This document shows positions 6,499-25,974 of a DNA stretch of 64,000 nucleotides, one piece after another. Numbering within the stretch: position 1 is the first letter of the stretch; each line of letters opens with the position of its first letter. The DNA is from a virus, in the IMG/VR virus record IMGVR_UViG_3300042294_003292, positions 8,327-72,326 of that record, one strand, 5' to 3'. The notes under the pieces are model-generated. The model saw only the letters and a program-made list of their open reading frames with translations. It did not search any database and was not told where the DNA came from. The translations under genes were made by a program, and so were the position numbers.

Positions 6499-6507
6499 CT
6501 CCTACCC

Positions 6508-8823: not shown

Positions 8824-8826
8824 GTT

Positions 8827-9198: not shown

Positions 9199-9215
9199 AG
9201 GATTATTATAGCATG

Positions 9216-9923: not shown

Positions 9924-10019
9924 TTACAGCTCCTTATTTTTTAACTGGAAAAGACTTTCCGCCAACCTTAATTACTGAGGGTAGATCTTTAGGGGTATTA
10001 CTTACTCTTACAACTGGCA

Positions 10020-10403
10020 TTATAAGGACCCCGTAGTTACATCACTTAGAACTTTGATAGTTCCGATAAGTGGTGTCCAGATGGAGTTGTCCTCTAGTGT
10101 CACCTGCAAGTCAAATGGGAGCTCTGCTACAGTTTTAGTGAATCCAGATCCCCAAAATGCTGTTACTTCTGAAGAAACAATAATATTTACATATCCAGCA
10201 TGGACATCGACTTCCAGTTCATCCAGGAAGTCTCCTCTGATGTCATAGGCGGTTGCAGCAAAAGACCAAGAAGAAGTGTCAAACTTAGTGACTTCGTCAT
10301 CTTCTAGGAACTCTACTCTAATAGAGGCACTATCTCCTCTTACGACCTGCCAGGTAATATTGGCTGGGTCAGCACCAAAAATTTCAGGGACACAAAGACT
10401 CAT
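10020..10403 (-). CDS. BppU N-terminal-like protein
   Basis: VVRGDS...FDLQV...GTIKV. Confidence 0.55.
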   Translation of the reverse strand: MSLCVPEIFGADPANITWQVVRGDSASIRVEFLEDDEVTKFDTSSWSFAATAYDIRGDFLDELEVDVHAGYVNIIVSSEVTAFWGSGFTKTVAELPFDLQVTLEDNSIWTPLIGTIKVLSDVTTGSL

Positions 10404-10427
10404 AATACTATTATTATACCCCCATAT

Positions 10428-10480
10428 AAAAGAACTAGCATCCAGGATGGTGGGTATGAAGAACAGCCTGAATGCTAGTT
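10428..10480 (-). ncRNA. candidate stand-alone hairpin sRNA
   Basis: TGTTATAAT promoter puts +1 near 10480; 14-bp stem (G-U on minus strand), loop CUGUUCUUCAUACCCACCAU, U-tract after the stem. Confidence 0.6.
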
Positions 10481-10499
10481 AGTTAAATTATAACATATA

Positions 10500-10680
10500 G
10501 ATAACATTGGCATAAAAAACACTATATATAGTAGTTACCAAATTGTTATGAAATCTTTATAAAAACGTAATAGAAAATATCGTTTGTTTCTGTTATAATC
10601 TTATATATATAATATATATAAATATATATAATATATAAATATTAAGTATATATTAATAATTAATATATAATAATCGGTTT
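10500..10680. other. extremely AT-rich non-coding tract with (TA)n runs
   Basis: 10601-10672 is almost only A/T. Confidence 0.7.
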
Positions 10681-10681
10681 T

Positions 10682-11017
10682 CTACTTTTTGTCAAAATGA
10701 TTTAGAAGTGCTTCAAAAAGCTTATCAATTTTTTCTTCTAATCTATAACTATCTTTTTTTAGATCCGTTACTTCTTGGTTAATTTTTTTAATGTCTTTTC
10801 TTAGATCTTCGTGGTCTTTTTCCATTCTGCTAACCTGGTCCTTTATGCTTGAACCTCCATTAGGCCTTAGTTCCTTGGCCACACTTGTGATCTCGTCTTT
10901 AATGTAGACAGTAAATTTCTTGTGAACCTGGTAGGCTATTGAGGACGCCAGCGTAATCAGGGTTAGGATACCGACAGTTAGGGGTACGTAGTTTTCTAGC
11001 CATTCAACAAGGGTCAT
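10682..11017 (-). CDS. membrane-anchored coiled-coil protein (possible lysis accessory)
   Basis: One TM helix, PNGGSS motif, then coiled coil; TATAAT 7 nt before ATG. Confidence 0.6.
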   Translation of the reverse strand: MTLVEWLENYVPLTVGILTLITLASSIAYQVHKKFTVYIKDEITSVAKELRPNGGSSIKDQVSRMEKDHEDLRKDIKKINQEVTDLKKDSYRLEEKIDKLFEALLNHFDKK

Positions 11018-11080
11018 ATCTATAATTATATTGTTTTTTTTAACATTTTTGCTCATGTTATAATTTATTTAGGAGGGTTC

Positions 11081-11719
11081 ATGTCAGTTCAAATATTCGA
11101 TAACTACATTTCAGGCGAACAAGCAAAAATAATAATTGATGGCTTGTCCCCTTACCTGGTAAAGAGTGATCGTATCGGGATGTCTGAAGCTCAGTACGAA
11201 GATCCGACAAAAGCTCTCTTTAATATTTATGACGGTAAGCCAATTATCGACAACGAAGAGTCGCTAGACGCTGCAACTCTTTTTACGGAAATAGTAAATG
11301 ATGTCGCAAAAGAGATCAGCAAATTTTATAATGTAGAGGCTGTGGTTGCAAGTTCGATTTTTGCAGAGGTTGCCGAAGGTGGGTTCAACGGACTTCATTG
11401 CGATAGCGTGATGCTGGATGGAACTCCGTGGGACGATAATAATGAAGCGCTGGATAATCTTGAGTTCTCGGCACTAGTATATTTGAATACTTCGGGAGTA
11501 GATTACGAAGGCGGTCAAATCGAATTTCCAAATCAAAAGATCAGGGTAACGCCAGAAGCTGGGAAGATGGTTTTCTTTCGGGGCGATATTGATCACCCAC
11601 ATGAAGTCTTCGAAGTAACCGCAGGTAAAAGATATACGCTGGTTTTGTTTTATGGCAGGGCCAGTGAAGTCAAGCAATATCAGCGATTTTTGTCGGAGCG
11701 AGATTTCGGCGGTATATAG
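11081..11719 (+). CDS. 2OG-Fe(II) oxygenase (prolyl-4-hydroxylase-like)
   Basis: HCD...YLN..YEGGQIEF...H.V..V..GKRY. Confidence 0.9.
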   Translation: MSVQIFDNYISGEQAKIIIDGLSPYLVKSDRIGMSEAQYEDPTKALFNIYDGKPIIDNEESLDAATLFTEIVNDVAKEISKFYNVEAVVASSIFAEVAEGGFNGLHCDSVMLDGTPWDDNNEALDNLEFSALVYLNTSGVDYEGGQIEFPNQKIRVTPEAGKMVFFRGDIDHPHEVFEVTAGKRYTLVLFYGRASEVKQYQRFLSERDFGGI

Positions 11720-11812
11720 AGATACCATAACCACTATACAGTAAAACCCTGTAATATGGTTACTTGCACTAAAAAGCCTGACATGCTATAATATTTAAAC
11801 AAGGTGGGTTAT

Positions 11813-12013
11813 ATGTCTGATGATGTACGATTTATAGACCTTTTCGATCCTAATCAGCCTAGGAGCGATAAAGAGCTTATCGAGTACAGGCTCAGTATCT
11901 GTAATCAATGTCCCTGGTTTAATAAGCGCCTAGTTAAGTGCAAACAATGTGGGTGCTTCATGAAACTAAAAAGTACGCTAAAACAAGCTAAATGTCCAAT
12001 AGATAGGTGGTAA
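11813..12013 (+). CDS. Cys-rich DUF6171-like protein
   Basis: RLSICNQCP...CKQCGCFM.LK....KCPIDRW. Confidence 0.7.
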   Translation: MSDDVRFIDLFDPNQPRSDKELIEYRLSICNQCPWFNKRLVKCKQCGCFMKLKSTLKQAKCPIDRW

Positions 12014-12201
12014 AAGTGACTAGAGAAGAAGTTGTACAGAAGATGGTTGAAATCGCAGAAGCGTTTAACCTACAGGCTATTCAGGGTGCTGGTCTACCAG
12101 AGACTCAGATTGAGGAAATGGTTGCACAGGTTAGGCCACAGTTGTATACAATCCAAGGCGAGATTTATGATACCCTCGTCGAAGATGGAGTTATTCAGTA
12201 A
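12007..12201 (+). CDS. hypothetical protein
   Basis: 64-aa ORF coupled to upstream gene. Confidence 0.6.
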   Translation: MVKVTREEVVQKMVEIAEAFNLQAIQGAGLPETQIEEMVAQVRPQLYTIQGEIYDTLVEDGVIQ

Positions 12202-12301
12202 TTCTTATTAAGATGGATTCTGTGGAGTCTTGCAAGGACACTTGTCATTACAGCCACATGCCATCTTGTGCTTAATAATCAACATGATATTATTATAATC
12301 T

Positions 12302-13057
12302 ATGATAGTAAAAGATCTTTCTAAGGATATTCTATATATCGAAAATGTCTTTGAACGTGCCCAGGACTTTGTCGATGCTATAGAGAGATTCGATTCAGAT
12401 ACCCAAGTTCATCCTGTTATTCCAGCTTGGAGAGATTGGTATGACGGTGTTCCGTACCAGGATGAAGATGGTGTATGGCAGGTTAACTATCATGATGCCC
12501 CCAAAGGAAAGCAAAAGCTATTTGATTGGAACATATCAGCTACTAACAATTATAGGGTGTGGCCACTTCCAGAAGATGATCTTGGAGACTATGCCCACAA
12601 GATAGCAAATCCAGTTATTCATTTAATTCACGAACCATATCTAAAGGTCCTAGATATTTGGTATGAGAAGACTGGACACAAGAAGCTAGATTATGTCTCT
12701 AAAAACTATACCCTGAAAAAATATAATACTGGTGGCTCTATAGGCACTCATATTGATAAGAATGATCAAGATCCAGGAAGCACCATGGACTATACCGTTC
12801 TTTTTTATCTAACAGATAACTATGAAGGTGGAGAGATAGAGTTTACAGAAGCAAATATAACTCTAAAGCCTGCAGCTGGAAGTGCTTTGATATTTAAAAC
12901 CACAGAGCCCCATATGGCATATGAAGTAAGAGAAGGAGATAAATACTTTATCTTCATGTATATTCACACAGAGTTTGGACATTCCACCAGTTTGTATGAA
13001 GACTTTGTTGCCCTCAATAATTCTATTTCAGAATATAGGAAAAACCTAAATTCATAA
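12302..13057 (+). CDS. 2OG-Fe(II) oxygenase
   Basis: HID...YLTDNYEGGEIEF...H...V..GDKY. Confidence 0.9.
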   Translation: MIVKDLSKDILYIENVFERAQDFVDAIERFDSDTQVHPVIPAWRDWYDGVPYQDEDGVWQVNYHDAPKGKQKLFDWNISATNNYRVWPLPEDDLGDYAHKIANPVIHLIHEPYLKVLDIWYEKTGHKKLDYVSKNYTLKKYNTGGSIGTHIDKNDQDPGSTMDYTVLFYLTDNYEGGEIEFTEANITLKPAAGSALIFKTTEPHMAYEVREGDKYFIFMYIHTEFGHSTSLYEDFVALNNSISEYRKNLNS

Positions 13058-13239
13058 AAATCTGAATATTTTTTAAATATGTACGATACACGATCACGCT
13101 AAAAAACACCAAATTACTAGAGCGCACACCACACCCCGTACGACCCATGTTATAAAAATGTTATAAGACACTACGGCGTGTCTCCCCTAAAATGTCGTAG
13201 GGTGGTGCTAATGTATAAGTAGTTAGAAAGGATAAATAA

Positions 13240-13479
13240 ATGAACATAATGGAAATTAGAAAGAACGGAATTGGTTCTAACTTTTCTGTAATCAACCCAG
13301 AGGACGGATACCGCAAGGACAACCGCCTATGGTTCGGAACTTGTAGCGAGTGTGGTGAGAGCGTCACCAACTCAAGCCTAAAGGGTTCTTGGGTTCACTC
13401 TATTCACTCTCTAACAGAATACGCCCCTGGTAAGTTTGTGAACTCTTATCGTGATTCTGAGGTGTGTCCTAACGCATAA
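13240..13479 (+). CDS. small early protein (CxxC)
   Basis: Own promoter and GAAAGGATAAATAA RBS. Confidence 0.8.
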   Translation: MNIMEIRKNGIGSNFSVINPEDGYRKDNRLWFGTCSECGESVTNSSLKGSWVHSIHSLTEYAPGKFVNSYRDSEVCPNA

Positions 13480-13523
13480 ATGTCGTAGGGTTATGCTAGT
13501 ATCTAAATAGAAAGGATAAATAA

Positions 13524-13724
13524 ATGAGATACCAAAACAAATACTACCAGCCAGTAGATAGCCTAACACGCTACGCTAAGGTAAACCTGCTAAACCTTCA
13601 GGCAGTAGAAGAACAAATAGACTTGCTAATCTCAATTAGTGATGACCCTAGTTGGGAAACTATCAAAGAGGTAGAAGGTCTAATCAAAGTAGCAAAATCA
13701 CTTGGAACTAAGAGGAGTTGGTAA
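13524..13724 (+). CDS. small early protein
   Basis: Own promoter and GAAAGGATAAATAA RBS. Confidence 0.8.
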   Translation: MRYQNKYYQPVDSLTRYAKVNLLNLQAVEEQIDLLISISDDPSWETIKEVEGLIKVAKSLGTKRSW

Positions 13725-14037
13725 TTGTGATAACCCTAACCTTTGAAACTTGGGAAGAGTTTGATAACGCTATTGGTTCTATTGTAGCTTTGGAGACTGC
13801 TATCGCTACCCCCAGCGAATAGCAAAAGTTTTCTAAAACACGGCGTGTCGTATTGACAATGTCGCCCATCTGGGCTCGGGCCCCCCAATATCTAGTAGTC
13901 CTAATTAAGTTAAGACACTAGATCTAGATCTCCCAGAATTATAACAAAATGATAACAAGTATCACGACACACCCCTAAATGTCCCCAAAATGTCGTAGGG
14001 TCGTGATAGGTTTTTAGTAGTTAGAAAGAAGGAATAA

Positions 14038-14223
14038 ATGAGTAGAAGAATGTGGCGTAAAACTGAATGTAAAGGCTGTGGCTATGTCCAAGAAACAAGC
14101 ACTAGCTACTACCTAGACCGCAAGCAGTGGGACGCAAACCACCTGCCCTATCACTACAGCGTGTTGCCCAAGAAAATGTCTGAGGGTTATGCTAAGTTAG
14201 AACTATCAACGAAAGGAAACTAA
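14038..14223 (+). CDS. small early protein (CxxC)
   Basis: Promoter at 13990; AAGGA RBS. Confidence 0.75.
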   Translation: MSRRMWRKTECKGCGYVQETSTSYYLDRKQWDANHLPYHYSVLPKKMSEGYAKLELSTKGN

Positions 14224-14227
14224 ATAA

Positions 14228-14407
14228 ATGACTGAACAGATTTGCGTATTTTGTATGAACCTAGTCAATGACTATGTTTGTTTTGAGTGTGATGACTACA
14301 AGGGTCTAATGCCACTAAAAGAGGCAGAGGCTTACTTGGGTGAGGATTTCCCAGAGGAATACCGCCAACCAATGTCTATCTATGGACAAAACCTAATCTG
14401 GCAATAA
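14228..14407 (+). CDS. small zinc-finger-like early protein (59 aa)
   Basis: Manual translation MTEQICVFC...VCFECDDYKG; GAAAGGA RBS. Confidence 0.7.
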   Translation: MTEQICVFCMNLVNDYVCFECDDYKGLMPLKEAEAYLGEDFPEEYRQPMSIYGQNLIWQ

Positions 14408-14452
14408 TGTCAGACCCCTATGCTAGATTTGTAAAAACGAAAGGATAAATAA

Positions 14453-14623
14453 ATGGCTTACAACAGAGAATCACACGAACTACTAGACTCAGCACTAGAG
14501 GTTCTAAAGACTAAGGCTCAATACCCTTATGCCAGAATGGTTGGATACCTAATGCCTAATGTGCCACTAGAAGATGCTAAGCGTATCGCAGAACTAATCC
14601 TAGAGTGGGAGGGCGACAAGTGA
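14453..14623 (+). CDS. small early protein (56 aa)
   Basis: Manual ORF with CGAAAGGATAAATAA RBS and promoter at 14407. Confidence 0.75.
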   Translation: MAYNRESHELLDSALEVLKTKAQYPYARMVGYLMPNVPLEDAKRIAELILEWEGDK

Positions 14624-14995
14624 GTCTGTCAGTAGAAGAACTAGAAACCCTAATTTTCCAAATTGACCTAATGCTCTCAGAAGATAAAATGTCTGAAGGT
14701 GTTGGTAGTCTTTTTACAACTAGAGAGGATAACTAAATGATTTTCTATAACGGATTCAATCTAATGGTTGATTTGATTTTGGTTGCTGTTGTGTATGTAA
14801 TTGCTCACGGCATTGGATACCGCAAAGCCAAAGACTTTTTTCAGCCCCCGTTCTAACGGCGTGTCGCCTTGACAAAGTGTCAGGGTGGCGGCCGAGCCCT
14901 GGATCAGATCGGGCCCCAATTTGTTTACGAATATTTTTACGACACTCCCAGAAAATCTCCCAATAAATGTCAGAGGGTAGATGTATAATAAAGCT

Positions 14996-15160
14996 ATGAA
15001 ACTAGGAAAAGCTAATGAATCAAGACGCAAGGCGGAAAGTAAAGAACTATTCCGCAACTTACTAAAAGCTCCTCACCTAGTTTCTACACCAGAAAAATAC
15101 AAGGGAAGTCGTCAGTCTAACAATACTAAGGCTATTAGAGAAAGTAAGGCAGATGAGTAA
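14996..15160 (+). CDS. small basic early protein (54 aa, leaderless)
   Basis: TATAAT 6 nt upstream of ATG; K/R-rich. Confidence 0.65.
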   Translation: MKLGKANESRRKAESKELFRNLLKAPHLVSTPEKYKGSRQSNNTKAIRESKADE

Positions 15161-15283
15161 TTATAACTGTTGGGACTGTAATAAGCTAACTAGACACTTA
15201 TTCGAATACAGAACAATAAATGTCTGTGCCTCATGTTATGCTATTAGAGTTGGACACCCCTCAGCAAGAAAGTTGGTAAAGTA

Positions 15284-15586
15284 ATGGGAAGCTTACAAGC
15301 AAGCGAATTCGCTCAAATGGATGTTGATATTGAAACTGCCTTGGCGTGGCACTTGAAGGGTAATCACTATCCACCAATTCCTAGCTCAATGATACAACCA
15401 TGTATAGAGGCTATTGACGCTTATTGGGAAGAGGACTACAACAGACTAATCCAATTGCCAATTGATGGCGTAGACCGTAATGGAGAGCCGTTCCAAATTA
15501 GATGGCGTGATGGCTCAGACAAGGCTCCCGCTTGGGCCCTAGTTGAACACGCTCACCTTGACGCTTGGCTACCTGAAATAGAATAA
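15284..15586 (+). CDS. hypothetical early protein
   Basis: 100-aa ORF after promoter 15220. Confidence 0.75.
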   Translation: MGSLQASEFAQMDVDIETALAWHLKGNHYPPIPSSMIQPCIEAIDAYWEEDYNRLIQLPIDGVDRNGEPFQIRWRDGSDKAPAWALVEHAHLDAWLPEIE

Positions 15587-15628
15587 ATGTCAGACGTAGT
15601 CTGTATAATTATCTAAGAAAGGACCCCT

Positions 15629-16348
15629 ATGCCCCTAATACGTTCAAAAGATAGAAAGGTTACAAATGCGGTATCTCCGAATGGTAAGTCGCCCACTATT
15701 GCTAACACCTTTGGGCTTCCGTCTGGTAAAGCGTTTTCCTGCCCTGGAGCAACTAGTGTATGCGAGAAAATCTGCTATGCGGGTAAACTAGAGAAAATCT
15801 ATAAAGGCGTCAAGGACGTCCTTCTAACCAATTGGGACCTGCTACGTAATGCAGACCAATTGGAAATGGAAGCGCTATTGTTCCAAATGATAGATGAGTT
15901 TGATAAAGACTGTAACAAGCGCAATGCAGAAAAGCTGTTTCGAATTCACTGGGACGGTGACTTCTTCAATGAGACTTATACTCACGCTTGGAAGAATGTA
16001 ATCCTTGCATTCCCTTCCATTCAATTCTGGGTATACACCCGTTCAGACTTTGCGGTACCTATCCTTAGCGATGTTTCTAACTTATCACTGTACTTCTCAA
16101 CTGATGATGATAACTGGCAGCTGGCTAGTGAGTTGAAGAAAGCCAATGGCGTTAAGCTTGCATACCTTGCTCAAAATTTTGCAATGGGTAAAGAGCGGAT
16201 GTTGTCTATCACGCCTAAGTCTGCAATTCCTTGCCCTGAGAATGCGAAGAAACTTCCGCTAATCAGTGACAAGGGTTCCGCCTGCGTTACTTGCGGACAG
16301 TGTGTTTTTGCACGTAATGACATTTTGTTTAGCGCTAGTAAAAAGTAA
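15629..16348 (+). CDS. GP88-like Cys-rich phage protein (possible Fe-S enzyme)
   Basis: CPGATSVCEKICYA, FRIHWDGDF, FWVYTRS, C-terminal CP...CVTCGQC. Confidence 0.75.
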   Translation: MPLIRSKDRKVTNAVSPNGKSPTIANTFGLPSGKAFSCPGATSVCEKICYAGKLEKIYKGVKDVLLTNWDLLRNADQLEMEALLFQMIDEFDKDCNKRNAEKLFRIHWDGDFFNETYTHAWKNVILAFPSIQFWVYTRSDFAVPILSDVSNLSLYFSTDDDNWQLASELKKANGVKLAYLAQNFAMGKERMLSITPKSAIPCPENAKKLPLISDKGSACVTCGQCVFARNDILFSASKK

Positions 16349-16466
16349 GGGGATGAGGTAAAATATATCATGGACACTTTCTACATTCTATTGATTTTAT
16401 TTCTCATGGCCCTGCTACTAGTTTCTAATAATAGAAAATAGAATCATGCTATAGGGGCATGTTAAC

Positions 16467-16530
16467 CTAGGGATCTTGTTATATCCTTTCTTAGGTCCCT
16501 GGCGTCCTGGCCACGACGATAAACTGGCCA
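16467..16530 (+). ncRNA. anti-RBS hairpin A followed by pseudoknot motif
   Basis: 10-bp stem; loop UGUUAUAUCCUUUCUU complementary to AGAAAGGAUA; pseudoknot at 16503-16530. Confidence 0.65.
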
Positions 16531-16638
16531 CATTTCGGCCCGAGCCGCTTTATAACAAAATGGTAACAAGTTTACGACACGTCTCAAAAATGTCCTAGGT
16601 ATGATGTATAGTAATACTACCTAAAAAGAAAGTAGAGT

Positions 16639-17202
16639 ATGGGAACTAGAGGAATCACAGAAGTAGTTTACAATGGTGAAATTGTTGTTAGCCAGTATGG
16701 TCAATGGGACCACTACCCAAGCGGTCAGGGTATCACAGCGTTCAAGTTTCTACGCAGTCAAGAAAACATTGACAACCTAAAGAAAAATCTTGCCCTAGTC
16801 TATGTTCCAAGTGATGACGAATACAAAGCTATTGTAAGCAAGTATTCTGATGAGCGTGGAATGATGACTATGGAACAGGGTGATGAGTTCAACAAGATGT
16901 ATCCAAGTCTAACCAGAGATACTGGTGCTGGTATCCTTGAGATTATTGCTAACGCAACTGAATCAGTCCCACTATTTTTGGACCTAGAGTTCAAAGATGA
17001 CAGACTATTCTGTGAAGGTGTTTATACAATCAACTTAGATGACAACACTTTCACAACTAGATACAATCGCTACGAAAATGACAATGATGAAGATGTTTAT
17101 ACTTTATCTTTTGAGCAGATTCTTTACACGGGTGAAGATGACTATCTTGAAAGAGCAAAGTGTGGAGTCTATCAGTATCAAAAGTCTGAGGCTTTAGCCT
17201 AA
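16639..17202 (+). CDS. hypothetical early protein
   Basis: MGTRG...QYGQWDHYPSGQG; GAAAGTAG RBS. Confidence 0.8.
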   Translation: MGTRGITEVVYNGEIVVSQYGQWDHYPSGQGITAFKFLRSQENIDNLKKNLALVYVPSDDEYKAIVSKYSDERGMMTMEQGDEFNKMYPSLTRDTGAGILEIIANATESVPLFLDLEFKDDRLFCEGVYTINLDDNTFTTRYNRYENDNDEDVYTLSFEQILYTGEDDYLERAKCGVYQYQKSEALA

Positions 17203-17218
17203 CAAGATACCCTGCCAG

Positions 17219-17270
17219 CTTGACAAACTGGCGGGGATCTGCTCGGCCCCAAAACTAGGCGTTTGTCAAG
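17219..17270. repeat. 52-bp dyad-symmetric site
   Basis: CTTGACAAAC...GTTTGTCAAG perfect 10-bp arms centred on the CG of GCTCGGCC. Confidence 0.7.
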
Positions 17271-17423
17271 TTTACGATTATAACAATTTTTCCCCTGAAT
17301 TGTTATAAATAACTTGGGCGTGGCTCTTGATAATGTCGGAGGTATGCCCTATAATTTAGGAGTAGCAAAAACGACTACTAAATAGAAAAATCCTAGTGGA
17401 AAGACTAGGTGAAAGGAAGCAAA

Positions 17424-17579
17424 ATGGCAAATGTAATTGCCCCCGTTGTTGGCTCACAATACACTACTCAGAAATCAGGCGTTTCTGGGATTGTTCAGGA
17501 AGTTGTCGCAAACAAGACTGGAACTTTCCGTGTCCGTCTTGATGTAAATGGGCAGCCTCGCTGGACTACTATCAAGTAA
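17424..17579 (+). CDS. small beta-rich early protein (51 aa)
   Basis: Manual translation MANVIAPVVGSQYTTQKSGVSG...RWTTIK; GAAAGGA RBS. Confidence 0.7.
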   Translation: MANVIAPVVGSQYTTQKSGVSGIVQEVVANKTGTFRVRLDVNGQPRWTTIK

Positions 17580-17590
17580 TAAATTAGTTT

Positions 17591-17627
17591 GAGGGGGTAG
17601 AGTTATTTATCCTTTCGCTACCCCCTC
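17591..17627 (+). ncRNA. anti-RBS hairpin B
   Basis: Perfect 10-bp stem; loop contains the exact reverse complement of (C)GAAAGGATAAATAA. Confidence 0.75.
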
Positions 17628-17687
17628 TCCTAAAATGTCTGACCCTGCCCCTATAATGTAATTACCCCAAATAGAAAGTAGAAACAA

Positions 17688-18134
17688 ATGGCTAGAACCC
17701 TGTCCGTAAAAGTTCCAACAAGCAAACTAATCGCAGACATTGAGCAGTCTATCGCTAAGATTGACGCAGACATTGAGGCGTATTCTGGATTGCGTAAGAA
17801 GTATGAAGCAGACATCAAGCAGTATGAGAAAGACCTTATTGCTTATGCTGTAAAGGCACTACAAGACCCAAACAATGTTGGCACAGACCACAACTCTCTA
17901 ATTCGTGTATCAACCAACAACTACCGCAACTCTGTATCTGTTGATTTTGATACTGAGGGTCTTGGTTTCCCAAAGAAGCCAGAAGAGCCAGCAAGACCAA
18001 ATGAGAAGACCTACTTTGGTAGGGACTACACCACACGCAAGGAAATCCTAGAGAAGAACCTGCGTATTCTAAAGATGACCTCTCAAGAGGAAGTATCAGC
18101 AAGTTCTTACTCTGCTGTGATTGACCTAATCTAA
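17688..18134 (+). CDS. hypothetical early protein (coiled coil)
   Basis: 148 aa; own promoter; GAAAGTAG RBS. Confidence 0.8.
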   Translation: MARTLSVKVPTSKLIADIEQSIAKIDADIEAYSGLRKKYEADIKQYEKDLIAYAVKALQDPNNVGTDHNSLIRVSTNNYRNSVSVDFDTEGLGFPKKPEEPARPNEKTYFGRDYTTRKEILEKNLRILKMTSQEEVSASSYSAVIDLI

Positions 18135-18143
18135 TTAGGGAAA

Positions 18144-18170
18144 CGACCTGAGCAAGTCGCTAAACTGCTC
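18144..18170 (+). ncRNA. 3'-UTR H-type pseudoknot motif
   Basis: CGAC-CT-GAGCA-A-GTCG-CTAAAC-TGCTC, 9 nt after the stop codon. Confidence 0.7.
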
Positions 18171-18374
18171 TCCCCTTGGCACAAATACTGCGTGATCTGA
18201 TCACCCAAAGCTGAAGCCAGGGGGATCTTCCCGTTTTTGGCTCGGGCCGCCGTTACCAAATTGTTATTTTAAGAAGTCTAATTATTTTGCCCCAGATTCT
18301 TGACAATGTCAGAGGGTGGCTGTAAAATAGTCTCAACAAACAAATAACTAATAACCCTAATAGAAAGTAGAAAA

Positions 18375-19376
18375 ATGGCACATTTGCTAGAACAGTCCGC
18401 AACAGGCGAAACCGCTTTTGCTTCTTTTCGTGAGCCAGCTTGGCACCAGCTAGGCACAGTTTTCAATGAGGAAGTCTCAACTAACAAGATGTTGAAACTC
18501 GCACACCTTGACAACTGGAATGTTCGCTTGGAAGATGTAGCAATTCCAAATGGTTTTGAGAGTGACAAGAATTATTTCTTCGTGACTAGAACTAACCCAT
18601 TCAACAAGCAACAGAATGATGTTCTTGGCGTTGTTGGTGAAAGATACAATGTTCTTCAGAATGAAGACTTGTTTGATTTTGGTGATGCCCTGCTGGACGG
18701 CGGTCGCTGGGAGACTGCTGGTTCTATCAAGAACGGCAGACAGGTTTTCGGTTCTCTTGCTCTTGAGCGTGAAACAGTTCTTGACCCTAACGGCGTTTCA
18801 GATGTTGTGAAGTCTTATTTGCTAATCAACACTAGCCACGACGGCTCAGTTGCTATTCAGGCTTCTATCACACCTGTTCGTGTTGTATGTGCTAACACTC
18901 TAAACCTTGCTCTTGGTAAAGGCAACAGAGGTGTCAAGCAGTCTTTCAAGATTCGCCACACCCAAACCGCTTCAGGCAAAGTTGCTCAGGCTCGTGAGGC
19001 TCTTGGTCTTGCTAATAAGTATCTTGATGAGTTTGACAAGCTTGCTCAGTCTATGATTGAAAAAGAATTGACTAAGGCTCAGTTTGACAAGATTGTTGAG
19101 CTGGCTTACCCAAAGCCAGACAAAGATACCAAAGGTGCTGTCAAGAAGTGGGAAAACAAAACAGACATTCTTCAGAGTATCTATGTTGGTTCAACTAACG
19201 GAATGATTGCTGGAACTGCTTGGGGTGCTTTCAATGCTCTAACTGAGAGACTAGACTGGTATCGCACTGCTAGAGGTGGCTCTAACGAATCTATTCTAGC
19301 AGCTGCTTCTGGTTTTGACCCTGTGACTACCGCAGAAAAAAACAGACTGCTTCAGTTGGTCTTGGCTAACAGCTAA
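18375..19376 (+). CDS. DUF932 / TIGR03299-like phage-plasmid protein
   Basis: PAWHQLG, VVGERYNVLQN, ETAGSIKNGR, SHDGS, RVVCANTL, GTAWGAFNALTE. Confidence 0.9.
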   Translation: MAHLLEQSATGETAFASFREPAWHQLGTVFNEEVSTNKMLKLAHLDNWNVRLEDVAIPNGFESDKNYFFVTRTNPFNKQQNDVLGVVGERYNVLQNEDLFDFGDALLDGGRWETAGSIKNGRQVFGSLALERETVLDPNGVSDVVKSYLLINTSHDGSVAIQASITPVRVVCANTLNLALGKGNRGVKQSFKIRHTQTASGKVAQAREALGLANKYLDEFDKLAQSMIEKELTKAQFDKIVELAYPKPDKDTKGAVKKWENKTDILQSIYVGSTNGMIAGTAWGAFNALTERLDWYRTARGGSNESILAAASGFDPVTTAEKNRLLQLVLANS

Positions 19377-19382
19377 CCAAAA

Positions 19383-19408
19383 GTCCTGGGCATGACCAAA
19401 AACTGCCC
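19383..19408 (+). ncRNA. 3'-UTR H-type pseudoknot motif
   Basis: GTC-CT-GGGCA-T-GAC-CAAAAAC-TGCCC, 6 nt after the stop codon. Confidence 0.7.
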
Positions 19409-19569
19409 TCCATTCACACTTGACAAGATCGCAATTTTCGGGCCGAGCGCCTAAAGTAAAATTAGTTAATAAAAAATACCAATTACGAAGTGGTAAATAA
19501 TTTCCCAGAAATCTTGATAATGTCAGAGGCAACCACTATAATGTAACTACCCTAAAAGAAAGTAGACAA

Positions 19570-19755
19570 ATGCCCAAATACTATGTAAAGATGCGTATTG
19601 ACTTTGCTGGAGAAATTGAAGCAGAATCTAAAGAGGCAGCAGAAGACCTAGCTTGGACTAGCTGGGGTGATTCAATGGACAATGAAATAACCTATGATGG
19701 TGTTTATGACATTGACGTTGAGGAAATTGAGGATGACGAGGAAGACGAGGAATAA
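19570..19755 (+). CDS. small acidic early protein
   Basis: 61 aa, D/E-rich; GAAAGTAG RBS. Confidence 0.75.
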   Translation: MPKYYVKMRIDFAGEIEAESKEAAEDLAWTSWGDSMDNEITYDGVYDIDVEEIEDDEEDEE

Positions 19756-19785
19756 ATGTCCTACCCTAGTGTTATAGTGGATACT

Positions 19786-20151
19786 ATGAATGCCCCTGTT
19801 GAATGCCCCAATCACAATGGTTCTTTTGACTGTAATCCTTTTTGTCGTTTGTGTGAGGGAAACCAGGAAACAACTCTAGACGAAATGCTATACCAAGCAG
19901 ATTCAGTATCGTTTGATGGTTGTCACAAAATCTATCTAAACATGGACGCCAAGCAGACTGAGAAGATGGTTGGCTATGGTTATGACAAGACTATTAGTGA
20001 TACACCTGCTGCCATGAAAGACCTAGTCTTTTCTTGGTATGAAGATTCTTGTAGTCTCAGATTCATTGACGCTGTATTTACTGATGACGACGAGACTGAC
20101 AAGTTTATTACTGTTATTGGACAATTCTTTGGAGAGGACGAAGACGAATGA
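19786..20151 (+). CDS. hypothetical early protein (Cys cluster)
   Basis: CPNHNGSFDCNPFCRLC; start moved to ATG 7 nt after the -10 box. Confidence 0.7.
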   Translation: MNAPVECPNHNGSFDCNPFCRLCEGNQETTLDEMLYQADSVSFDGCHKIYLNMDAKQTEKMVGYGYDKTISDTPAAMKDLVFSWYEDSCSLRFIDAVFTDDDETDKFITVIGQFFGEDEDE

Positions 20152-21134
20152 AAGAGTGGACTCAGTTCATAAACAAGACTGACAAGAATGAGTTTGAGAC
20201 TTTGCTAGCAGACATAATGTCAGAGGCTCTTGCTAAAATAGACTCTATCCCTGATGAAGAATTAGAAAGGCTAGTTGACTGTGAGTAGTCCTATGAAAAA
20301 GTATGTAGTTACTTATACCGCTGAGTATGTGGTAGAAGCTCTTGACGAAGAAGAAGCTATTGACCAAGCGATAGAGATACACTTTGAATTACCTGACGGA
20401 AGCTGGGAGGCAACTCTTGAAAACTAATGAAGAAATCATTGAGTATCTTACTAAAGACATTCAAGAGCTAATGCCTGAGAGAGAGTCTCTTGACATCAAC
20501 GATTCCTATGGCGACTACCTTGATGGCATCATTGGTAGAAGCCAGTCTGTCCTAAGAATGATGGGTGTTCCAGAAGTTCTTATCCCGCAGAATGGAGACT
20601 GCTAATGTATAGCAAGATTTGGACTGTTGAGAAAGATGGAGAACACGTTCCGATTGTCTTTGTTACAAAGAAAGACGCTGTGGAGTGGATAGCAGAAAAA
20701 GAGAATCCAGATAAGTACACATACTACAAGGAGACAGATAAGTAATGGCTGTATCAGAGATGGAACAGATTGGCTATGAGCAGGGTATGGTTGATACCCT
20801 TGCTTATGTAGAAAGAACAATAACAAAAGCTATGGACAATCCTGCGATGGACATCTTGACACCACGACAGGTACTGGGTATACTATTGGCATCTATCAGA
20901 ATACAAGAAGAGGACGAATAAATGGCTTGGGTAACTAACGATGGTGAATACAATGGCTCTTCCCTTGTGTTGGAGTTTGACTTCAATGCCCTCAACGAAC
21001 AGCAGTGGTCTAACCTAGAGGACATGTCTTCTATGGACAGGCTTGACTATGTTGAGGCTATCCTTGCTGGAGATGACGACAAAGTTCGTCACATTGAGCT
21101 TGATAACTTTACAGAGGAGTGGGGTCTGGAGTAA
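20148..21134 (+). other. run of about 6 tightly coupled small acidic ORFs (incl. 20417-20605, 20922-21134)
   Basis: Overlapping stop/start codons and RBSs on the + strand. Confidence 0.65.
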
Positions 21135-21276
21135 TCCAGGCCTTACGGCCTCGGGCCATCTTAATATAAACTGTTTAACCCCAAAAAACCTTTACGATCC
21201 TTTGAAAAATTTTCCCAGATCTATTGACAATGTCGTAGGGTTAGTGTATAGTAATAGCTAGTAGGAAGGAAACCCA

Positions 21277-21672
21277 ATGAGACAATCTGTCATGGTAAAT
21301 AAAATTGATACTGATAAGCTAACCAAGCTGTTGTATTGGAAGGCTGTTGAGGTTGGATCTGATTCAAGACCTGAAGGTGAATCAATGGTTGTTGTCAATA
21401 CCCCAAAAGGTTTAGCTACCGTATGCCATGAAGGCGTTGGATGGTGGAAGAATGACGACAACAAGTACCTTGTAGGTGGCTACATTGGATACAGCAACCC
21501 TACGTACTACATCACAGAAGATGAATTACTATCCTGTTTGTCAGATGAGATGGTAGATCTAGCAAGTTTTATAAATACCTTTGGGGATAGGCTAGAGAAC
21601 AACTACAGCTTATGGTACCACCAGGTAAAGGACACCCCACAAAATGTCAGTGGGTTGGCGTATAATCATTAA
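21277..21672 (+). CDS. hypothetical early protein
   Basis: 131 aa after TTGACA-ATGTC promoter. Confidence 0.75.
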   Translation: MRQSVMVNKIDTDKLTKLLYWKAVEVGSDSRPEGESMVVVNTPKGLATVCHEGVGWWKNDDNKYLVGGYIGYSNPTYYITEDELLSCLSDEMVDLASFINTFGDRLENNYSLWYHQVKDTPQNVSGLAYNH

Positions 21673-22026
21673 GAAAGGAAAGTAGATGCCCCTCTATAAA
21701 ATACAACGAGAGTACACCAACTGGGAAGAGATTACAGTTGAGGCTGATTCAGAAGACCAGGCACTGGAGCTGGCTGAGGATGAAGATACATGGGAGTATG
21801 CATATGATGTTAACTCATATAATTACACAGGCGAGACATGGATTGAGGAACAGTAATGGCAAAGCACGTACACTACTATAGCTATGGCGCTTGCACCTGG
21901 TGTGGCAAGAAGGTCAACAAAGGCCTTGGCGTGGATCTATACCGTGGAAAAAAAGTTTAAGAACCCTCTTGACAAAACCCCAGAAATTTGAGACAATAGT
22001 TTTACCCTAGAGAAAGTATAACCCCA

Positions 22027-22551
22027 ATGCACGTAATACAATACATTGCAACAAAAGCAGATGACACCAGCCATGCATTCAACTCTGTCAAAAACTATCT
22101 TGAGGAACAGCTAGGTAGCGGAGACAACTACAACACTTGGTATGACTGGTTCATAACAGGCGGAGGACGTTGGGCCTCTGGAGAAGACAATCAGTATAAC
22201 GATAACTATCAGGGTGATGTAGTTCATCAGTCTGACCCTAAGTTTGAGGAATACCTAGATACCGCTCACAAATACAGGCAGCAGGAGCTATCAGAGTATG
22301 AGGCTCAGGCACGTAAGATAAATCTAACAGAACTATTAGACAGCCTTCAAGACTTTGAGTTTGACCACTTCAAGGCTGGTATGGAGCTATACCCTATTAA
22401 GAAGCTGTATGACCTATGCATGGGTGTATGGGACTATCAGTCTTACTTCTTTGACATTGATAACGATAGCACCAGCAGAAAATATATGCGTGAAAGTATT
22501 GACAAAGGAGCAGATAGCTGGTATCTTGTTCCTGTGGACTTCCATTTTTAG
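22027..22551 (+). CDS. hypothetical phage protein
   Basis: WYDWFITGGGRW motif; ends LVPVDFHF. Confidence 0.8.
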   Translation: MHVIQYIATKADDTSHAFNSVKNYLEEQLGSGDNYNTWYDWFITGGGRWASGEDNQYNDNYQGDVVHQSDPKFEEYLDTAHKYRQQELSEYEAQARKINLTELLDSLQDFEFDHFKAGMELYPIKKLYDLCMGVWDYQSYFFDIDNDSTSRKYMRESIDKGADSWYLVPVDFHF

Positions 22552-22563
22552 AAAGTAGGAGCA

Positions 22564-22980
22564 ATGGAAATGACAAAAGTAGAACCGCAGTACACAGAGT
22601 ATCAGGGCTGGAATGAGTGGGCTGATAAGTACAAGCCAATCAAAAACCATCTTGTTTCTGACCCAGACCAGCAGATGTTTGAGACCTATGGCGAAGAGCT
22701 GGAGTATGTTCAGTCTGTTGAGCCTAACCGTATCTGGACCTACCTACAGGGAGACATGTCTGACCTTATTTGCGCAGGCTATCACTTTGTAAACAGGATT
22801 GGTTACTACATCACTGAGGTACCTTGGACCAACGAAGATGACTATGTCCTTCTATCAGTAGAAGAAGAGTGTAAGTGTTACAGCGAAGACGAAGATGTCA
22901 TGGCAACCCGCAACGATGAGTATGGGGACCCAAGCTGTGTAGAGTGCGAAGGGTATGGATATGTCACAAACTATGTATAG
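22564..22980 (+). CDS. hypothetical protein with C-terminal zinc-finger
   Basis: GYHFVNRIGYYITE; CKC...CVECEG; GAAAGTAGGA RBS. Confidence 0.8.
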   Translation: MEMTKVEPQYTEYQGWNEWADKYKPIKNHLVSDPDQQMFETYGEELEYVQSVEPNRIWTYLQGDMSDLICAGYHFVNRIGYYITEVPWTNEDDYVLLSVEEECKCYSEDEDVMATRNDEYGDPSCVECEGYGYVTNYV

Positions 22981-23323
22981 AAACAAGAACAGAAACAAGA
23001 CTCTTATTGACTATGACCTTAACATCTACATGCCTGAAGAGTACGACGACATATCAGATGAGTACTACTTTGACCCAAGTAACTGGAAGATTCATGTCTA
23101 CATTGTTAACGACCGTGGCCACGAGGAATGGGATGAGCCGTTGCATCTGACAGCTGAAGAGATTAGGCACCTAGGCCTAAACAGGGAATCGTACTTCAAA
23201 GACGAACAAGACGTCTGGTACGGCCTGGAGGGATTTAGGTTAGACTATTGGGATAGGATGTCCGATAGGCTGAAGGAATATTTCGATCGCCTGCCTAAGT
23301 ACGTAGAGGACGTAGGTCCATAA
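22973..23323 (+). CDS. hypothetical acidic protein
   Basis: ORF overlapping the upstream stop. Confidence 0.7.
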   Translation: MYRNKNRNKTLIDYDLNIYMPEEYDDISDEYYFDPSNWKIHVYIVNDRGHEEWDEPLHLTAEEIRHLGLNRESYFKDEQDVWYGLEGFRLDYWDRMSDRLKEYFDRLPKYVEDVGP

Positions 23324-23335
23324 TTAAATAAGGAT

Positions 23336-23441
23336 TGATGCGTTGAGCTGAGCTCCGCATCATGTGAGATACGACAGTTAGGGGTAGCTAGCGTATCTCA
23401 AGGGGTGTCAAGACTTTTCCTACTTTCAGTCTTGACACCCC
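23336..23441 (+). ncRNA. three-hairpin RNA ending in anti-RBS hairpin C
   Basis: Stems of 7, 9 and 14 bp; last loop UUUCCUACUUUC is antisense to GAAAGUAGGAAA. Confidence 0.65.
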
Positions 23442-23487
23442 CACCAATTTGTGGGATAATACACATAGGAGAATAACCAGATTGAGA

Positions 23488-23676
23488 ATGAGTGATGAGG
23501 AAAAGGTCGCAGTAAAAATCACTGGACTTCTCTCTGACCATAGGCTAAACTTAGATAGGGTTGGCTTGTATGTGGCAAGAGAAGAACCAAGTAGCAATTA
23601 CAGACGACTGATGATTGTGGCGGAAGCCGCTGATGAAGAATGGGAGAGTAGGTATGGCAGACACGACAGAGTATAG
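23488..23676 (+). CDS. hypothetical protein
   Basis: After TTGACA-N17-GATAAT promoter. Confidence 0.65.
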   Translation: MSDEEKVAVKITGLLSDHRLNLDRVGLYVAREEPSSNYRRLMIVAEAADEEWESRYGRHDRV

Positions 23677-23935
23677 AACACAGATAGAAGTCCTAGCAGA
23701 ACTTTGGATGGACTATCGTGATGACGAAGCATTTGCCGAATTGTTTGAGTATGCTGATTTGGGCTTTCCCCTTTCCTATGCTCTGGACAACGGAGTTGTG
23801 GATTCAACTGTTCACGCAGAGAAACTTATCGAAAGCACATTTGATTTGCTACTCAAACTTCTTGCCGTTGAGGACACAGGGTTTGAGAGCCTGAACGATT
23901 TGCTTGACACAGCTGAGCAGAAGAATCAAAAGTAA
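23654..23935 (+). CDS. hypothetical protein, paralog of 29433-29708
   Basis: EVLAELWMDYR...DLGFPLSY...VEDTGFESL. Confidence 0.75.
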   Translation: MADTTEYRTQIEVLAELWMDYRDDEAFAELFEYADLGFPLSYALDNGVVDSTVHAEKLIESTFDLLLKLLAVEDTGFESLNDLLDTAEQKNQK

Positions 23936-24190
23936 TCTAGTCTAACTTCCTGATCCTGGTTATCAGGGGGGTAGGCCCGAGTACCTTTATCAAAATGTTA
24001 TAAAACCACTATTGACAAACCTTATTACGATGGTATATAATATTTCCCTGAAATTTGATCGATGCCTATCCAAACCTCAAACCTTATTTAAATAAACATA
24101 TTACGATCAGATCAAAAAAATCGCTGAAATATTTGGCTATAAGGGTTTGGGTATTTTTAGAAGTCTTACCAAACATGATATACTTTATAC

Positions 24191-24385
24191 ATGAGTCCAA
24201 GAAACTATCTAAGAGTCTTTCATCCAGAAGAAGCCAGGAAGATTGATCAGGGATATTCTGATGCTGGTATTATAGTCGTTAATGTATTTACTAGAGCTAT
24301 AAGGTTTATGTTTCCTTTCTTTGTGCCTCGGGCTGAAGAGTCTATCAAGACTGATAATGATAATGCCGAAGGCATCAAAGAATAA
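24191..24385 (+). CDS. hypothetical protein
   Basis: TGATATACT 6 nt upstream of ATG. Confidence 0.55.
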   Translation: MSPRNYLRVFHPEEARKIDQGYSDAGIIVVNVFTRAIRFMFPFFVPRAEESIKTDNDNAEGIKE

Positions 24386-24939
24386 CCCCCTTCCCCCCTA
24401 TATAAATAACATTACGAAGAACAATTATTTTTCCCTGAAATATAAAACCTTTTAAATCTTTTTGGCCAGATTTCATTTAAAATGGTTTAGTTTTTTATAT
24501 TTTTATGGCCATATTTTGTATAAAAAATGCTTGACATTTGACGGATATTATGATATAGGGGTTTGGGGGTATAGGGGTTTGGGGTTTGAAATGATTACGA
24601 GTTTAAGTTAATATGTGCTCCATTCTCCACTATCCTCCATATCACTCCACTTTAACTCTATTAAACTTAATAAACAGTAAGATCTTTTAGTCTAAAACCA
24701 TGTCCAAAACATACTCTAAATAGCCCTAGAATGGATTCTGACGGGGTATTCAAACCTTCGTAAGACGGATATGGGGTTATCTTCGATTACGTCTTTTCTT
24801 GGTTTCATCTAGCTCAAATAGCACCAAAACCACAGCTGCCAATAGGAAAGATCCCACCAAAGAACATACTAACAAATACGTATTATCCATACGTATAAGT
24901 ATAACTTATTATGTATTTATATAGGGGGTGGAGGTTTGC

Positions 24940-25527
24940 TTATTCGATACCGTCGGAGATTCCAGCATCTCTTATCTTACGTACTTCATCAAAGATAGGG
25001 TCATCCTGGCTATACCGCATGTGCGAATAGTCTACCTCACCTGTGGCATCTGGAAACCTAAAGAAGATCATTGTGACGAACTCTCCTTCTTTAAAGGTTT
25101 TATGTGGTCTCCAGTGTGGATACTCGTTGGGGTTAAATATGATAGCCTCATTGTCTTCCATCTCGAAGACTTCCTTGTCTACCCCAAGACCCCATGTCGT
25201 ATTGGACTTGTATTGGTAGTCAATGATTAGGTCATTGGTATCACCATCATAATGTGGTGGCAGGTTAGGCTGACCATACTTAGCCTCATAGTCCACAAAC
25301 ATGCCAGACATTGGTTGTAGTGGTCTTCCCACTAGAAGCTCAACTCTCATCTTGATAGACTCTAGCATTGAGTTCGGAAGAAATACCGCATACATTATCC
25401 TACCTAGAGTTGGGTCTTCCTTTTTCTCTGACCTGGATGTCCACTCTTCTTCGTCAGTTAGCAAGTAGTGGATAGTCTCTAGCTCTTCTGGGAGGAGGAA
25501 GTCTTTGACCCTGTATACGTTTTCCAT
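24940..25527 (-). CDS. 2OG-Fe(II) oxygenase
   Basis: LPPHYD...HWR facial-triad pattern. Confidence 0.8.
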   Translation of the reverse strand: MENVYRVKDFLLPEELETIHYLLTDEEEWTSRSEKKEDPTLGRIMYAVFLPNSMLESIKMRVELLVGRPLQPMSGMFVDYEAKYGQPNLPPHYDGDTNDLIIDYQYKSNTTWGLGVDKEVFEMEDNEAIIFNPNEYPHWRPHKTFKEGEFVTMIFFRFPDATGEVDYSHMRYSQDDPIFDEVRKIRDAGISDGIE

Positions 25528-25535
25528 GAAGTCTA

Positions 25536-25748
25536 TTATACCAGGATGTCCTTCAGGTGGGAAAAGATGGTCTCCTGATAGAGGGGTGTCCTTGTCCTAT
25601 GAGACTGCTCTTCTAGACTATTTATTTCATTAAGAATACGCTGTCTCTCGTCCCTCTTTACCTTCTCTAGAAAGTCATTAATTGCCTTTGCATCTGACTT
25701 AGACATAGCTGAATTTAGGACTAGCATTCCGTGTTCGTAGTTGATCAT
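25536..25748 (-). CDS. hypothetical protein (ERxRI family)
   Basis: DERQRILNEI motif. Confidence 0.6.
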   Translation of the reverse strand: MINYEHGMLVLNSAMSKSDAKAINDFLEKVKRDERQRILNEINSLEEQSHRTRTPLYQETIFSHLKDILV

Positions 25749-25974
25749 TTCGTTACCTTATAAAGTAGCCACCAAGCAAATAGGATTCCAAAGGCTACAT
25801 AGTATGCCCAGGCAGCCCCTAGGATATCTCTCATAAATTGGTCCATTGTTTTCCTTAAGTGAAAGTTATTGTTCTTTTAATGAAAGTATACAGGGAATGG
25901 TAGAGAATGTCAAGACGGAGTCTTGTTGTGATCTCTTATTTACCGCCGAGCTTTTTGCGCCCGAACTTTAATTG

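Follow-up and report, generated by a model that had tools for sequence, protein, structure and literature searches.

The window, that is, the whole stretch of DNA analyzed here, comprises 64 kb of a 72,326-bp IMG/VR virus record with a completeness estimate of 64% and a G+C content of about 41%. The stretch was found in 20 sequencing runs from 16 freshwater or lake studies; of the 21 runs listed, none is recorded as RNA. Its closest cultured kin are Streptomyces phages of the BE cluster (55% amino acid identity in the DUF932 protein), and the remaining cultured matches of the window are all actinobacteriophages. Rightward genes occupy approximately 11 to 24.4 kb, and all other genes are leftward. 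Few of the early proteins have a family match: a 2OG-Fe(II) oxygenase (12302-13057), a GP88-family protein (15629-16348), and the DUF932 protein (18375-19376). Five tRNA genes (Met, Glu, Thr, Asp, and Asn) lie on the minus strand between 25974 and 47357.

The rightward genes are served by about 18 promoter-like elements on the plus strand (13191-21643), which carry a conserved AATGTC box in the spacer. The earlier of these elements have an extended -10 (TGCTA...) and lack a -35, and the later ones have the form TTGAYA-17-TATAAT. Repeated TTACGA and GGCCCGAG-like motifs are present in the long intergenic regions of the same interval. AT-rich palindromes are located where the leftward and rightward clusters diverge (10583-10669), and the convergence of gene clusters (24000-24600) is marked by repeats of GGTTTGGGG and TTCCCTGAAAT plus a perfect TTGACA-18-TATAAT; these palindromes and repeats may be origin or control regions. 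Lake metagenome contigs from four runs join the segment 13150-17700 in different ways (13244 to 14252, 13958 to 14406, and, running backward, 17663 to 15617). The joints lie at promoter-leader cassettes, which means that strains exchange their small early genes in the form of cassettes, an arrangement reminiscent of the early promoter/stem-loop cassettes of T4-type phages.

The early genes differ in the type of their ribosome binding site (RBS). In rightward genes the RBS is AGAAAGGA (7 sites ahead of a start codon) or AGAAAGTAG (5 to 6 sites), and in leftward genes it is AAGGAG. Within the rightward island (13226-23470), the RBS types follow one another in the order GAAAGGA, GAAAGTAG, and, after a hairpin designated A, AGGAG. 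The two unusual forms deviate from the perfect extended Shine-Dalgarno (SD) sequence at the same position. In relatives, GAAAGAAGG also serves as an RBS.

A second hairpin, designated B, is located in this island, directly after the small gene P0005. The features of this locus and of the three leaders that mirror the loop of hairpin B are as follows.

13226-13239, plus strand: RBS/leader of gene 13240-13479 (79 aa), 14/14 complementary to loop B
13510-13523, plus strand: RBS/leader of gene 13524-13724 (66 aa), 14/14 complementary to loop B, duplex -17.1 kcal/mol
14438-14452, plus strand: RBS/leader of gene 14453-14623 (56 aa), 15/15 complementary to loop B, duplex -18.6 kcal/mol
17327-17355, plus strand: promoter-like TTGATA-17-TATAAT upstream of P0005, an 11/12 consensus match in a consensus scan
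17424-17579, plus strand: P0005 (51 aa), with its stop 11 nt before hairpin B
17591-17627, plus strand: hairpin B, a 10-bp stem with 7 G-C pairs and a 17-nt loop
17591-17600, plus strand: 5' arm of hairpin B, GAGGGGGTAG
17601-17617, plus strand: loop of hairpin B, AGTTATTTATCCTTTCG, with the anti-RBS stretch at 17603-17617
17618-17627, plus strand: 3' arm of hairpin B, CTACCCCCTC
17634-17657, plus strand: promoter-like element (AATGTC box and TATAAT), beginning 7 nt past hairpin B, of gene 17688-18134

As RNA, hairpin B folds with -19.4 kcal/mol (z = -3.67), and 1 of 200 shuffled sequences folded as well. According to the initial annotation, its loop is the exact complement of the 14 to 15 nt that run up to the ATGs at 13240, 13524, and 14453, and an exact search confirmed this. 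The 14-mer GAAAGGATAAATAA occurs on the plus strand at 13226, 13510, and 14439, and its single minus-strand copy, at 17603-17616, is loop B. With up to two mismatches allowed, 7 matches were obtained against 0.93 expected, a number reached by none of 100 shuffles. All three plus-strand copies end directly at an ATG (13240, 13524, and 14453), and these ATGs open ORFs of 79, 66, and 56 aa. The leaders that hold the copies contain no other SD sequence, and the copies sit at SD distance from the ATGs. The three identical copies are probably cassette duplicates. Among the matches listed for the DNA contigs from four runs, there was no informative variant in loop B or in its targets.

To express the strength of pairing, energies were taken as the loop-only duplex plus the opening energy. 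The duplex of loop B with the 13240 leader amounts to -17.1 kcal/mol at an opening cost of 0.5 kcal/mol and spans about -15 to -1 relative to the start codon. For the three targets together, opening costs range from 0.5 to 2.5 kcal/mol, and the net energy is about -16 kcal/mol. By comparison, a perfect complement of the 8-nt core yields -9.8 kcal/mol, and 36 minus-strand leaders average -6.8 kcal/mol. After 13240, 13524, and 14453, the next best partners of loop B are 14228, its own gene at 17424, and 14038, all of which lie upstream. With its ends closed by the stem, a 17-nt loop can form all 15 pairs only under strain or if the stem opens. Whole-molecule cofolding of the hairpin with the leaders was also carried out and its numbers were discarded, because the contact of the loop with a linear partner at an intact stem is a pseudoknot in that representation, which makes the numbers meaningless.

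Hairpin B occupies the position of an intrinsic terminator, with a G+C-rich stem directly after a gene, 11 nt past the double stop of P0005. After the stem comes TCCTAAAATG. With a loop of 17 nt and no T-run, the hairpin departs from the terminator criterion of a short loop (3 to 8 nt) and a T-run. The terminator consensus scan lists neither hairpin B nor hairpin A. Terminators without a T-run are known in actinobacteria, and therefore the missing T-run does not exclude termination at hairpin B. Judged from the sequence, the promoter-like element at 17327-17355 and hairpin B would together define a transcript of about 270 nt. The promoter-like element 3' of hairpin B has the same layout in relatives. 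Hairpin B would lie in the 3' UTR of P0005. The RBS of P0005 itself, GAAAGGA at 17411, is complementary to only 7 nt of the loop (net -11.4 kcal/mol). The matches of 14 to 15 nt belong to genes 3 to 4 kb upstream, and these share an mRNA with the hairpin only if transcription does not terminate earlier.

The loop contains UCCUUUC, which would agree with the 3' tail of Gram-positive and actinobacterial 16S rRNA. Such a resemblance also follows from the use of its complement, GAAAGGA, as an RBS. A coding reading of the loops on the minus strand was considered and dropped, since neither a start codon nor an ORF comes after the RBS-like sequence there.

P0005 itself was found in 75 of the 80 relatives' loci. 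It belongs to no Pfam or PHROG family, gave no tblastn match in 50,697 phage records, and is absent from cultured phages. Its AlphaFold model (pLDDT 80.6) predicts a four-strand small barrel, for which Foldseek returned only weak SH3/Tudor-like matches (best E value, 0.065); P0005 was considered as a candidate RNA chaperone.

Two further hairpins of the island display anti-RBS sequences in their loops. The corresponding features are as follows.

16465-16505, plus strand: hairpin C, imperfect stem, -15 kcal/mol, z = -3.25
22551-22563, plus strand: RBS GAAAGTAGGA of gene 22564-22980, predicted to pair best with loop A
23402-23441, plus strand: hairpin A, 14-bp stem, -25 kcal/mol, z = -6.74
23416-23427, plus strand: loop of hairpin A, TTTCCTACTTTC, antisense to the RBS type GAAAGTAGG (also given as GAAAGTAGGAAA)

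When perfect stems of at least 8 bp were searched for, hairpins B and A were the only strong G+C-rich hairpins with a large loop in the rightward island. Loop A matches the RBS of gene 22564 exactly over 10 nt, with a net energy of -12.2 kcal/mol. The 3' arm of hairpin A contains the TTGACA -35 of the next promoter, and the -35 lies in the 3' arm in all 21 A-type elements. The first gene 3' of hairpin A uses AGGAG. Loop C (16477-16492) contains TATCCTTTCTT, which is antisense to AGAAAGGATA, and a related hairpin is found at position 7882 of another locus (L036). Complements of the 7-nt and 8-nt RBS cores occur four times on the plus strand of the island, and three of these occurrences lie in the loops of B, A, and C. 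Hairpin A is one of three hairpins in tandem, the other two being at 23338-23362 and 23365-23400. A search with Rfam 15, including the 6C and C4 antisense RNA families, gave no matches at E values up to 1 in window positions 10000 to 26000.

Two scans of IMG/VR were performed for the comparison with relatives. The first comprised 25 loci, and the second comprised the best 80 of 445 relatives of the neighboring DUF932 gene. The survey set consisted of 81 loci (the window and L035 to L114) from uncultured freshwater phages that are distant kin of the Streptomyces BE-cluster phages. A covariance model of hairpin B (R1) found 14 strong homologues in 81 sources, all of them directly after the stop of a P0005 homologue. 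In the alignment of six distinct B sequences, 5 of the 12 stem pairs were changed on both sides, and the covariation score was reached in none of 500 shuffles. Hairpins of type A were found in 21 loci (hairpin A and 20 relatives). In an alignment of 12 of their sequences, 98.1% of the cells were paired and 5 of 14 pairs were changed on both sides, again with 0 of 500 shuffles reaching the score. A second A-type group has a quite different stem sequence around the same loop, and the B-type loop motif recurs between unrelated stems at other sites.

The hairpin after P0005 is variable. A B-type hairpin follows this gene in only 14 of the 75 loci that contain it. In one locus (L052), the B stem carries a loop of 7 nt from which the motif is missing, and the anti-RBS loop is not essential at the P0005 site. 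In the homologous region of Streptomyces phage LukeCage, the nearest cultured relative examined, the hairpins are exclusively of the TTCG-tetraloop kind.

To count loop motifs, hairpins were collected from the survey set if they had a perfect stem of 8 bp or more, no fewer than 5 G-C pairs, and a loop of 7 to 24 nt, which resulted in 75 distinct hairpins. The complement of the 5-nt RBS core was present in the loop of 22 of the 75, and the core itself in none. Among these 22 anti-RBS loops, 11 were anti-GAAAGGA and 8 were anti-GAAAGTAG. Matches of at least 9 nt to the plus-strand windows of 22 nt before start codons were obtained for 21 of the 75 loops, compared with 5 of 75 in the same-sense control and 1 of 75 for minus-strand leaders; at 12 nt or more, the respective numbers were 9, 2, and 1. 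Since the surveyed loci are related, such counts are not independent events and overstate independence. Under a looser stem criterion, hairpin loops accounted for 20 of the 26 occurrences of the anti-GAAAGTAG 8-mer and for 51 of the 109 occurrences of the anti-GAAAGGA 7-mer, compared with 18 of 114 (GAAAGTAG type) and 39 of 309 (GAAAGGA type) for the sense motifs. As DNA, an inverted repeat is symmetric, yet the strand bias is strict, which indicates a function in the sense transcript.

The loops also vary with the lineage. Loop variants match the leaders of their own locus over 12 to 16 nt, past the SD core, as seen for TTAGTTAGAAAGGATA in L039, AGAAAGTAGGAAAT in L047, CGAAAGTAGGAT in L068, TAAGAAAGGTAA in L020, and GAAAGTAGGT in L031. 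The complementarity reaches into the phage-specific part of the leader, TAAATAA in the case of hairpin B and TTAGTTAG in relatives. In 36 of 48 hairpins the match at the own locus exceeded the mean of the other loci, and in only 3, including hairpin B, was the own locus the unique best; the cognate advantage of a loop for its own locus is therefore modest. Shuffled loops matched over 6.5 nt on average against 7.8 nt observed, with some shuffles reaching 10 to 12 nt, because the loops are pyrimidine-rich and the leaders purine-rich, and fairly long matches arise by composition alone.

The presence of loop A and that of its RBS type are loosely associated. Loci with an anti-A loop have an average of 2.85 A-type RBSs, compared with 0.57 in loci without it. 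The exact A-type RBS is absent in 7 of the 20 loci with an anti-A loop. In five of them (L040, L041, L043, L049, and L053), loop A is nearly unchanged and no exact 8-nt core was found 2 to 12 nt before an ATG within 10 kb on either side; what these loci do have are partial sites (for example, AAAGTAGAAAGG), located farther upstream of one gene. Strict co-occurrence of loop and RBS holds only loosely.

The order of the RBS types relative to the hairpins was counted in the six loci with both hairpin types, which include the window and its near-duplicate L035. There, 31 of 37 GAAAGGA RBSs lie upstream of hairpin B. Of 30 RBSs of the GAAAGTAG type, 23 lie between B and A, 7 lie upstream of B, and none follows A. 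According to this arrangement, each hairpin closes the gene block whose RBS type is mirrored by its loop.

Regulators with an anti-SD loop, of the RNAIII, Rsa, and 6C type, are characterized by a conserved hairpin with a pyrimidine-rich loop complementary to RBSs, and the phage hairpins have this structure. The proposal in the initial annotation that the loop is antisense to phage RBSs is supported, and it applies to a conserved family in which the stems covary around loops that stay fixed and occur on a single strand. On balance, we lean toward the interpretation that RNA hairpins in terminator position pair, through their anti-RBS loops, in cis or in trans with the RBSs of the phage's own early genes and thereby limit or stop translation. 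This interpretation starts from what is observed: the conserved structure, the loop fixed on one strand, the complementary sequences, and how the hairpins are placed relative to the RBS classes. From these we infer that transcripts run through the hairpin and terminate there, that pairing takes place in vivo, and in which direction it acts. Several observations count against the interpretation: the hairpin after P0005 is of the B type in a minority of loci, loop A is conserved in lineages with few exact targets, the cognate advantage is modest, fairly long matches can arise by composition, the surveyed loci are related, complete pairing would strain the loop or open the stem, and the hairpins of LukeCage are tetraloops only.

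In this favored model, the transcripts of the upstream early genes, or a short P0005 transcript, would end in or include hairpin B. The loop would pair with early genes of the matching RBS type, over their RBS and spacer (about -15 to -1); for hairpin B, these would be the GAAAGGATAAATAA sites at 13240, 13524, and 14453, with weaker pairing at 14228 and at its own gene, 17424. Since the predicted duplex is longer than any SD/anti-SD helix, it would compete with the 30S subunit and repress translation, and it may also mark the mRNA for decay. In the cis route, the 3' end would fold back on its own mRNA, and in the trans route, stable 3'-end fragments would act on other messages. Hairpin A would act likewise on the GAAAGTAG class in the next gene block.

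Other explanations must be weighed against this model. The same pairing could have the opposite outcome, namely, that it circularizes or masks early mRNAs against ribonucleases or a host defense nuclease, or delays their translation. The structural and comparative evidence for pairing applies equally to this case, and contacts between the 5' and 3' UTRs that control ribonuclease action have been described for the hbs mRNA of B. subtilis, as far as the available part of that source goes (PMC5737220). However, the duplex would cover the SD and the spacer up to the ATG, and in the precedents, as described in the accessible portions of these reports, initiation is blocked and decay is faster (PMC12697547 and PMC3868564), so that we regard protection as quite unlikely. 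It is unlikely, too, that the hairpins are ordinary terminators with a loop that is a functionless by-product of descent, for example, an inverted promoter-leader cassette left by recombination in the early region. Hairpin B does lie at a terminator-like position, between a double stop 11 nt upstream and the next promoter-like element 7 nt downstream; in most relatives the same place is taken by another hairpin; the early region is a mosaic with joints at leader cassettes, as the lake metagenome contigs indicate; and the three identical plus-strand copies are probably cassette duplicates. A by-product would nevertheless not be expected to keep its loop while the stems change by compensatory substitutions, to recur as one loop motif between many unrelated stems at different sites, or to be strictly one-stranded (22 versus 0). 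Moreover, loops of 12 to 23 nt without a T-run are a poor terminator design, the consensus scan omits both B and A, and the cultured relative uses tetraloops.

At the DNA level, the conserved motif of 12 to 15 bp could be an operator- or stoperator-like double-stranded site of a phage regulator that would also recognize the motif in inverted orientation before early genes. Each of the 21 A-type elements has its loop immediately 5' of the -35 in the 3' arm, which is the usual place of activator sites and UP elements, and the motif is repeated. Its inverted copies, however, are confined to hairpin loops with covarying arms, and a DNA site leaves both the covarying inverted-repeat flanks and this confinement unexplained. 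Its plus-strand copies are at SD distance from ATGs, in leaders that have no other SD. We thus consider a DNA element very unlikely. Least credible to us is an anti-SD mimic that sequesters either the SD sequences of host mRNAs or a factor with affinity for the 16S 3' tail and so shuts off host translation while the phage messages escape. The initial annotation had offered such a decoy of host mRNAs as its alternative, with phage genes escaping through GAAAGTAG, and had equated the UCCUUUC(U) of the loops with the 16S tail; loop A presumably differs from a 16S-type tail by one base. This part of the annotation was not supported by the comparison, whereas its antisense-loop idea was. Hairpin A and its 20 relatives are antisense to exactly GAAAGTAG, so that the supposed escape class is perfectly matched by loop A. 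In addition, the complementarity runs past the SD core into the phage-specific leader on both sides, which points to the phage's own mRNAs as partners, and the AAGGAG of the phage's minus-strand genes overlaps the SD family expected for host genes.

Returning to repression of the phage's own early genes, the order of the RBS blocks allows a broader and doubtful extension, in which the early region would be an RNA-only, class-specific translational timer with RBS blocks of GAAAGGA, then GAAAGUAG, then AGGAG. The first two blocks would each close with a stable hairpin antisense to their own RBS type. As the early mRNAs decay, the protected 3'-end hairpins would accumulate, and each class would be switched off in turn. 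If true, such a timer would be an RNA counterpart of T4 RegB across a large family of abundant freshwater actinobacterial phages.

The class of mechanism proposed here is known from bacteria. In RNAIII of Staphylococcus aureus, the loop of the terminator hairpin itself takes part in pairing. As the available part of the source describes it, RNAIII resembles the proposed phage elements in that its transcript codes for a small peptide and has at its 3' end a stable hairpin with a pyrimidine-rich anti-SD loop and several target RBSs (PMC2837412). The two have no sequence or Rfam relationship, and the phage loops are U/C-rich rather than C-rich and reach 12 to 16 nt into phage-specific leaders. 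Unlike RNAIII, the element described here is a phage-encoded candidate whose putative targets are its own neighboring genes. In the icaR mRNA of S. aureus, an anti-SD motif in the 3' UTR pairs with the SD, blocks the initiation complex, and creates a substrate for RNase III, according to the part of the report at hand, and this corresponds to the cis version of the proposed model (PMC3868564). That case, in the same source, concerns a single gene, the motif UCCCCUG, and a long 3' UTR (PMC3868564), whereas the phage loops stand at the end of multi-gene units, fall into two classes for two RBS types, and are found phage-family-wide.

In B. subtilis, aSD-like sequences pair with an RBS hundreds of nucleotides away, which blocks translation and accelerates decay, as stated in the accessible part of a preprint (PMC12697547). 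They are described there as pyrimidine-rich, deleterious, and depleted from genes (PMC12697547); those of the phages are conserved and displayed in loops and would therefore be used rather than avoided. The 6C sRNA is, like the elements proposed here, an actinobacterial regulator that binds multiple mRNAs through hairpin loops, but in the portion of the source considered it has C-rich loops and is a chromosomal stand-alone sRNA (PMC6486639), and the Rfam search of window positions 10000 to 26000 gave no match to it. By RBS class, the regulatory logic is that of the T4 endoribonuclease RegB, which inactivates early mRNAs through a GGAG SD and, as far as the source seen describes it, is a protein nuclease helped by ribosomal protein S1 (PMC3014915). 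In the phage hairpins, by contrast, the proposed effector is an RNA loop, and the classes are the RBS types GAAAGGA, GAAAGTAG, and AGGAG. Among phages, the c4 RNA of P1 and P7 is an antisense RNA that uses its loops to pair with the RBS region of a gene lying downstream in its operon; it is a processed RNA of 77 nt with two loop-target pairs and one controlled gene. The region 10000 to 26000 of the window has no Rfam match, including to C4 antisense RNA. In the literature searched, no described phage element of this kind was found. The conservation across a phage family, the position at the ends of gene blocks, and the two loop classes matched to two RBS types appear to be new.

If the loops act as proposed, widespread lake phages would control early translation by hairpins at the ends of messages, with no need for a protein regulator; the 445 IMG/VR relatives of the neighboring DUF932 gene give an idea of the breadth. 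A phage example with two loop/RBS classes would then join the few cases in which anti-SD sequences act from the 3' ends of bacterial mRNAs, and aSD-like sequences, which are otherwise purged from bacterial genes, could be retained for regulation. Large-loop hairpins whose loops mirror the local RBS could serve as a signature in annotation, and the combination of a 37-nt hairpin and a 15-nt leader offers compact parts for reporter systems.

In most loci with P0005, the gene is followed not by a B-type hairpin but by one that consists of CCTGRGCA, a loop of variable sequence with AAAC at its end, and TGCYC. In the window, hairpins of this type lie shortly after stop codons at 16506-16529, 18147-18170, and 19385-19408. 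Their stem covaries (GAGCA/TGCTC, GGGCA/TGCCC, and GGGTA/TACCC), and the type may be the standard terminator or a processing site of this family. In LukeCage (L034, record positions 1-14179), a TTCG-tetraloop hairpin stands behind nearly every early gene, with a GCCGCCCCGG motif after the hairpin, and the RBSs are of the CGAAGGGA or GGAGG type.
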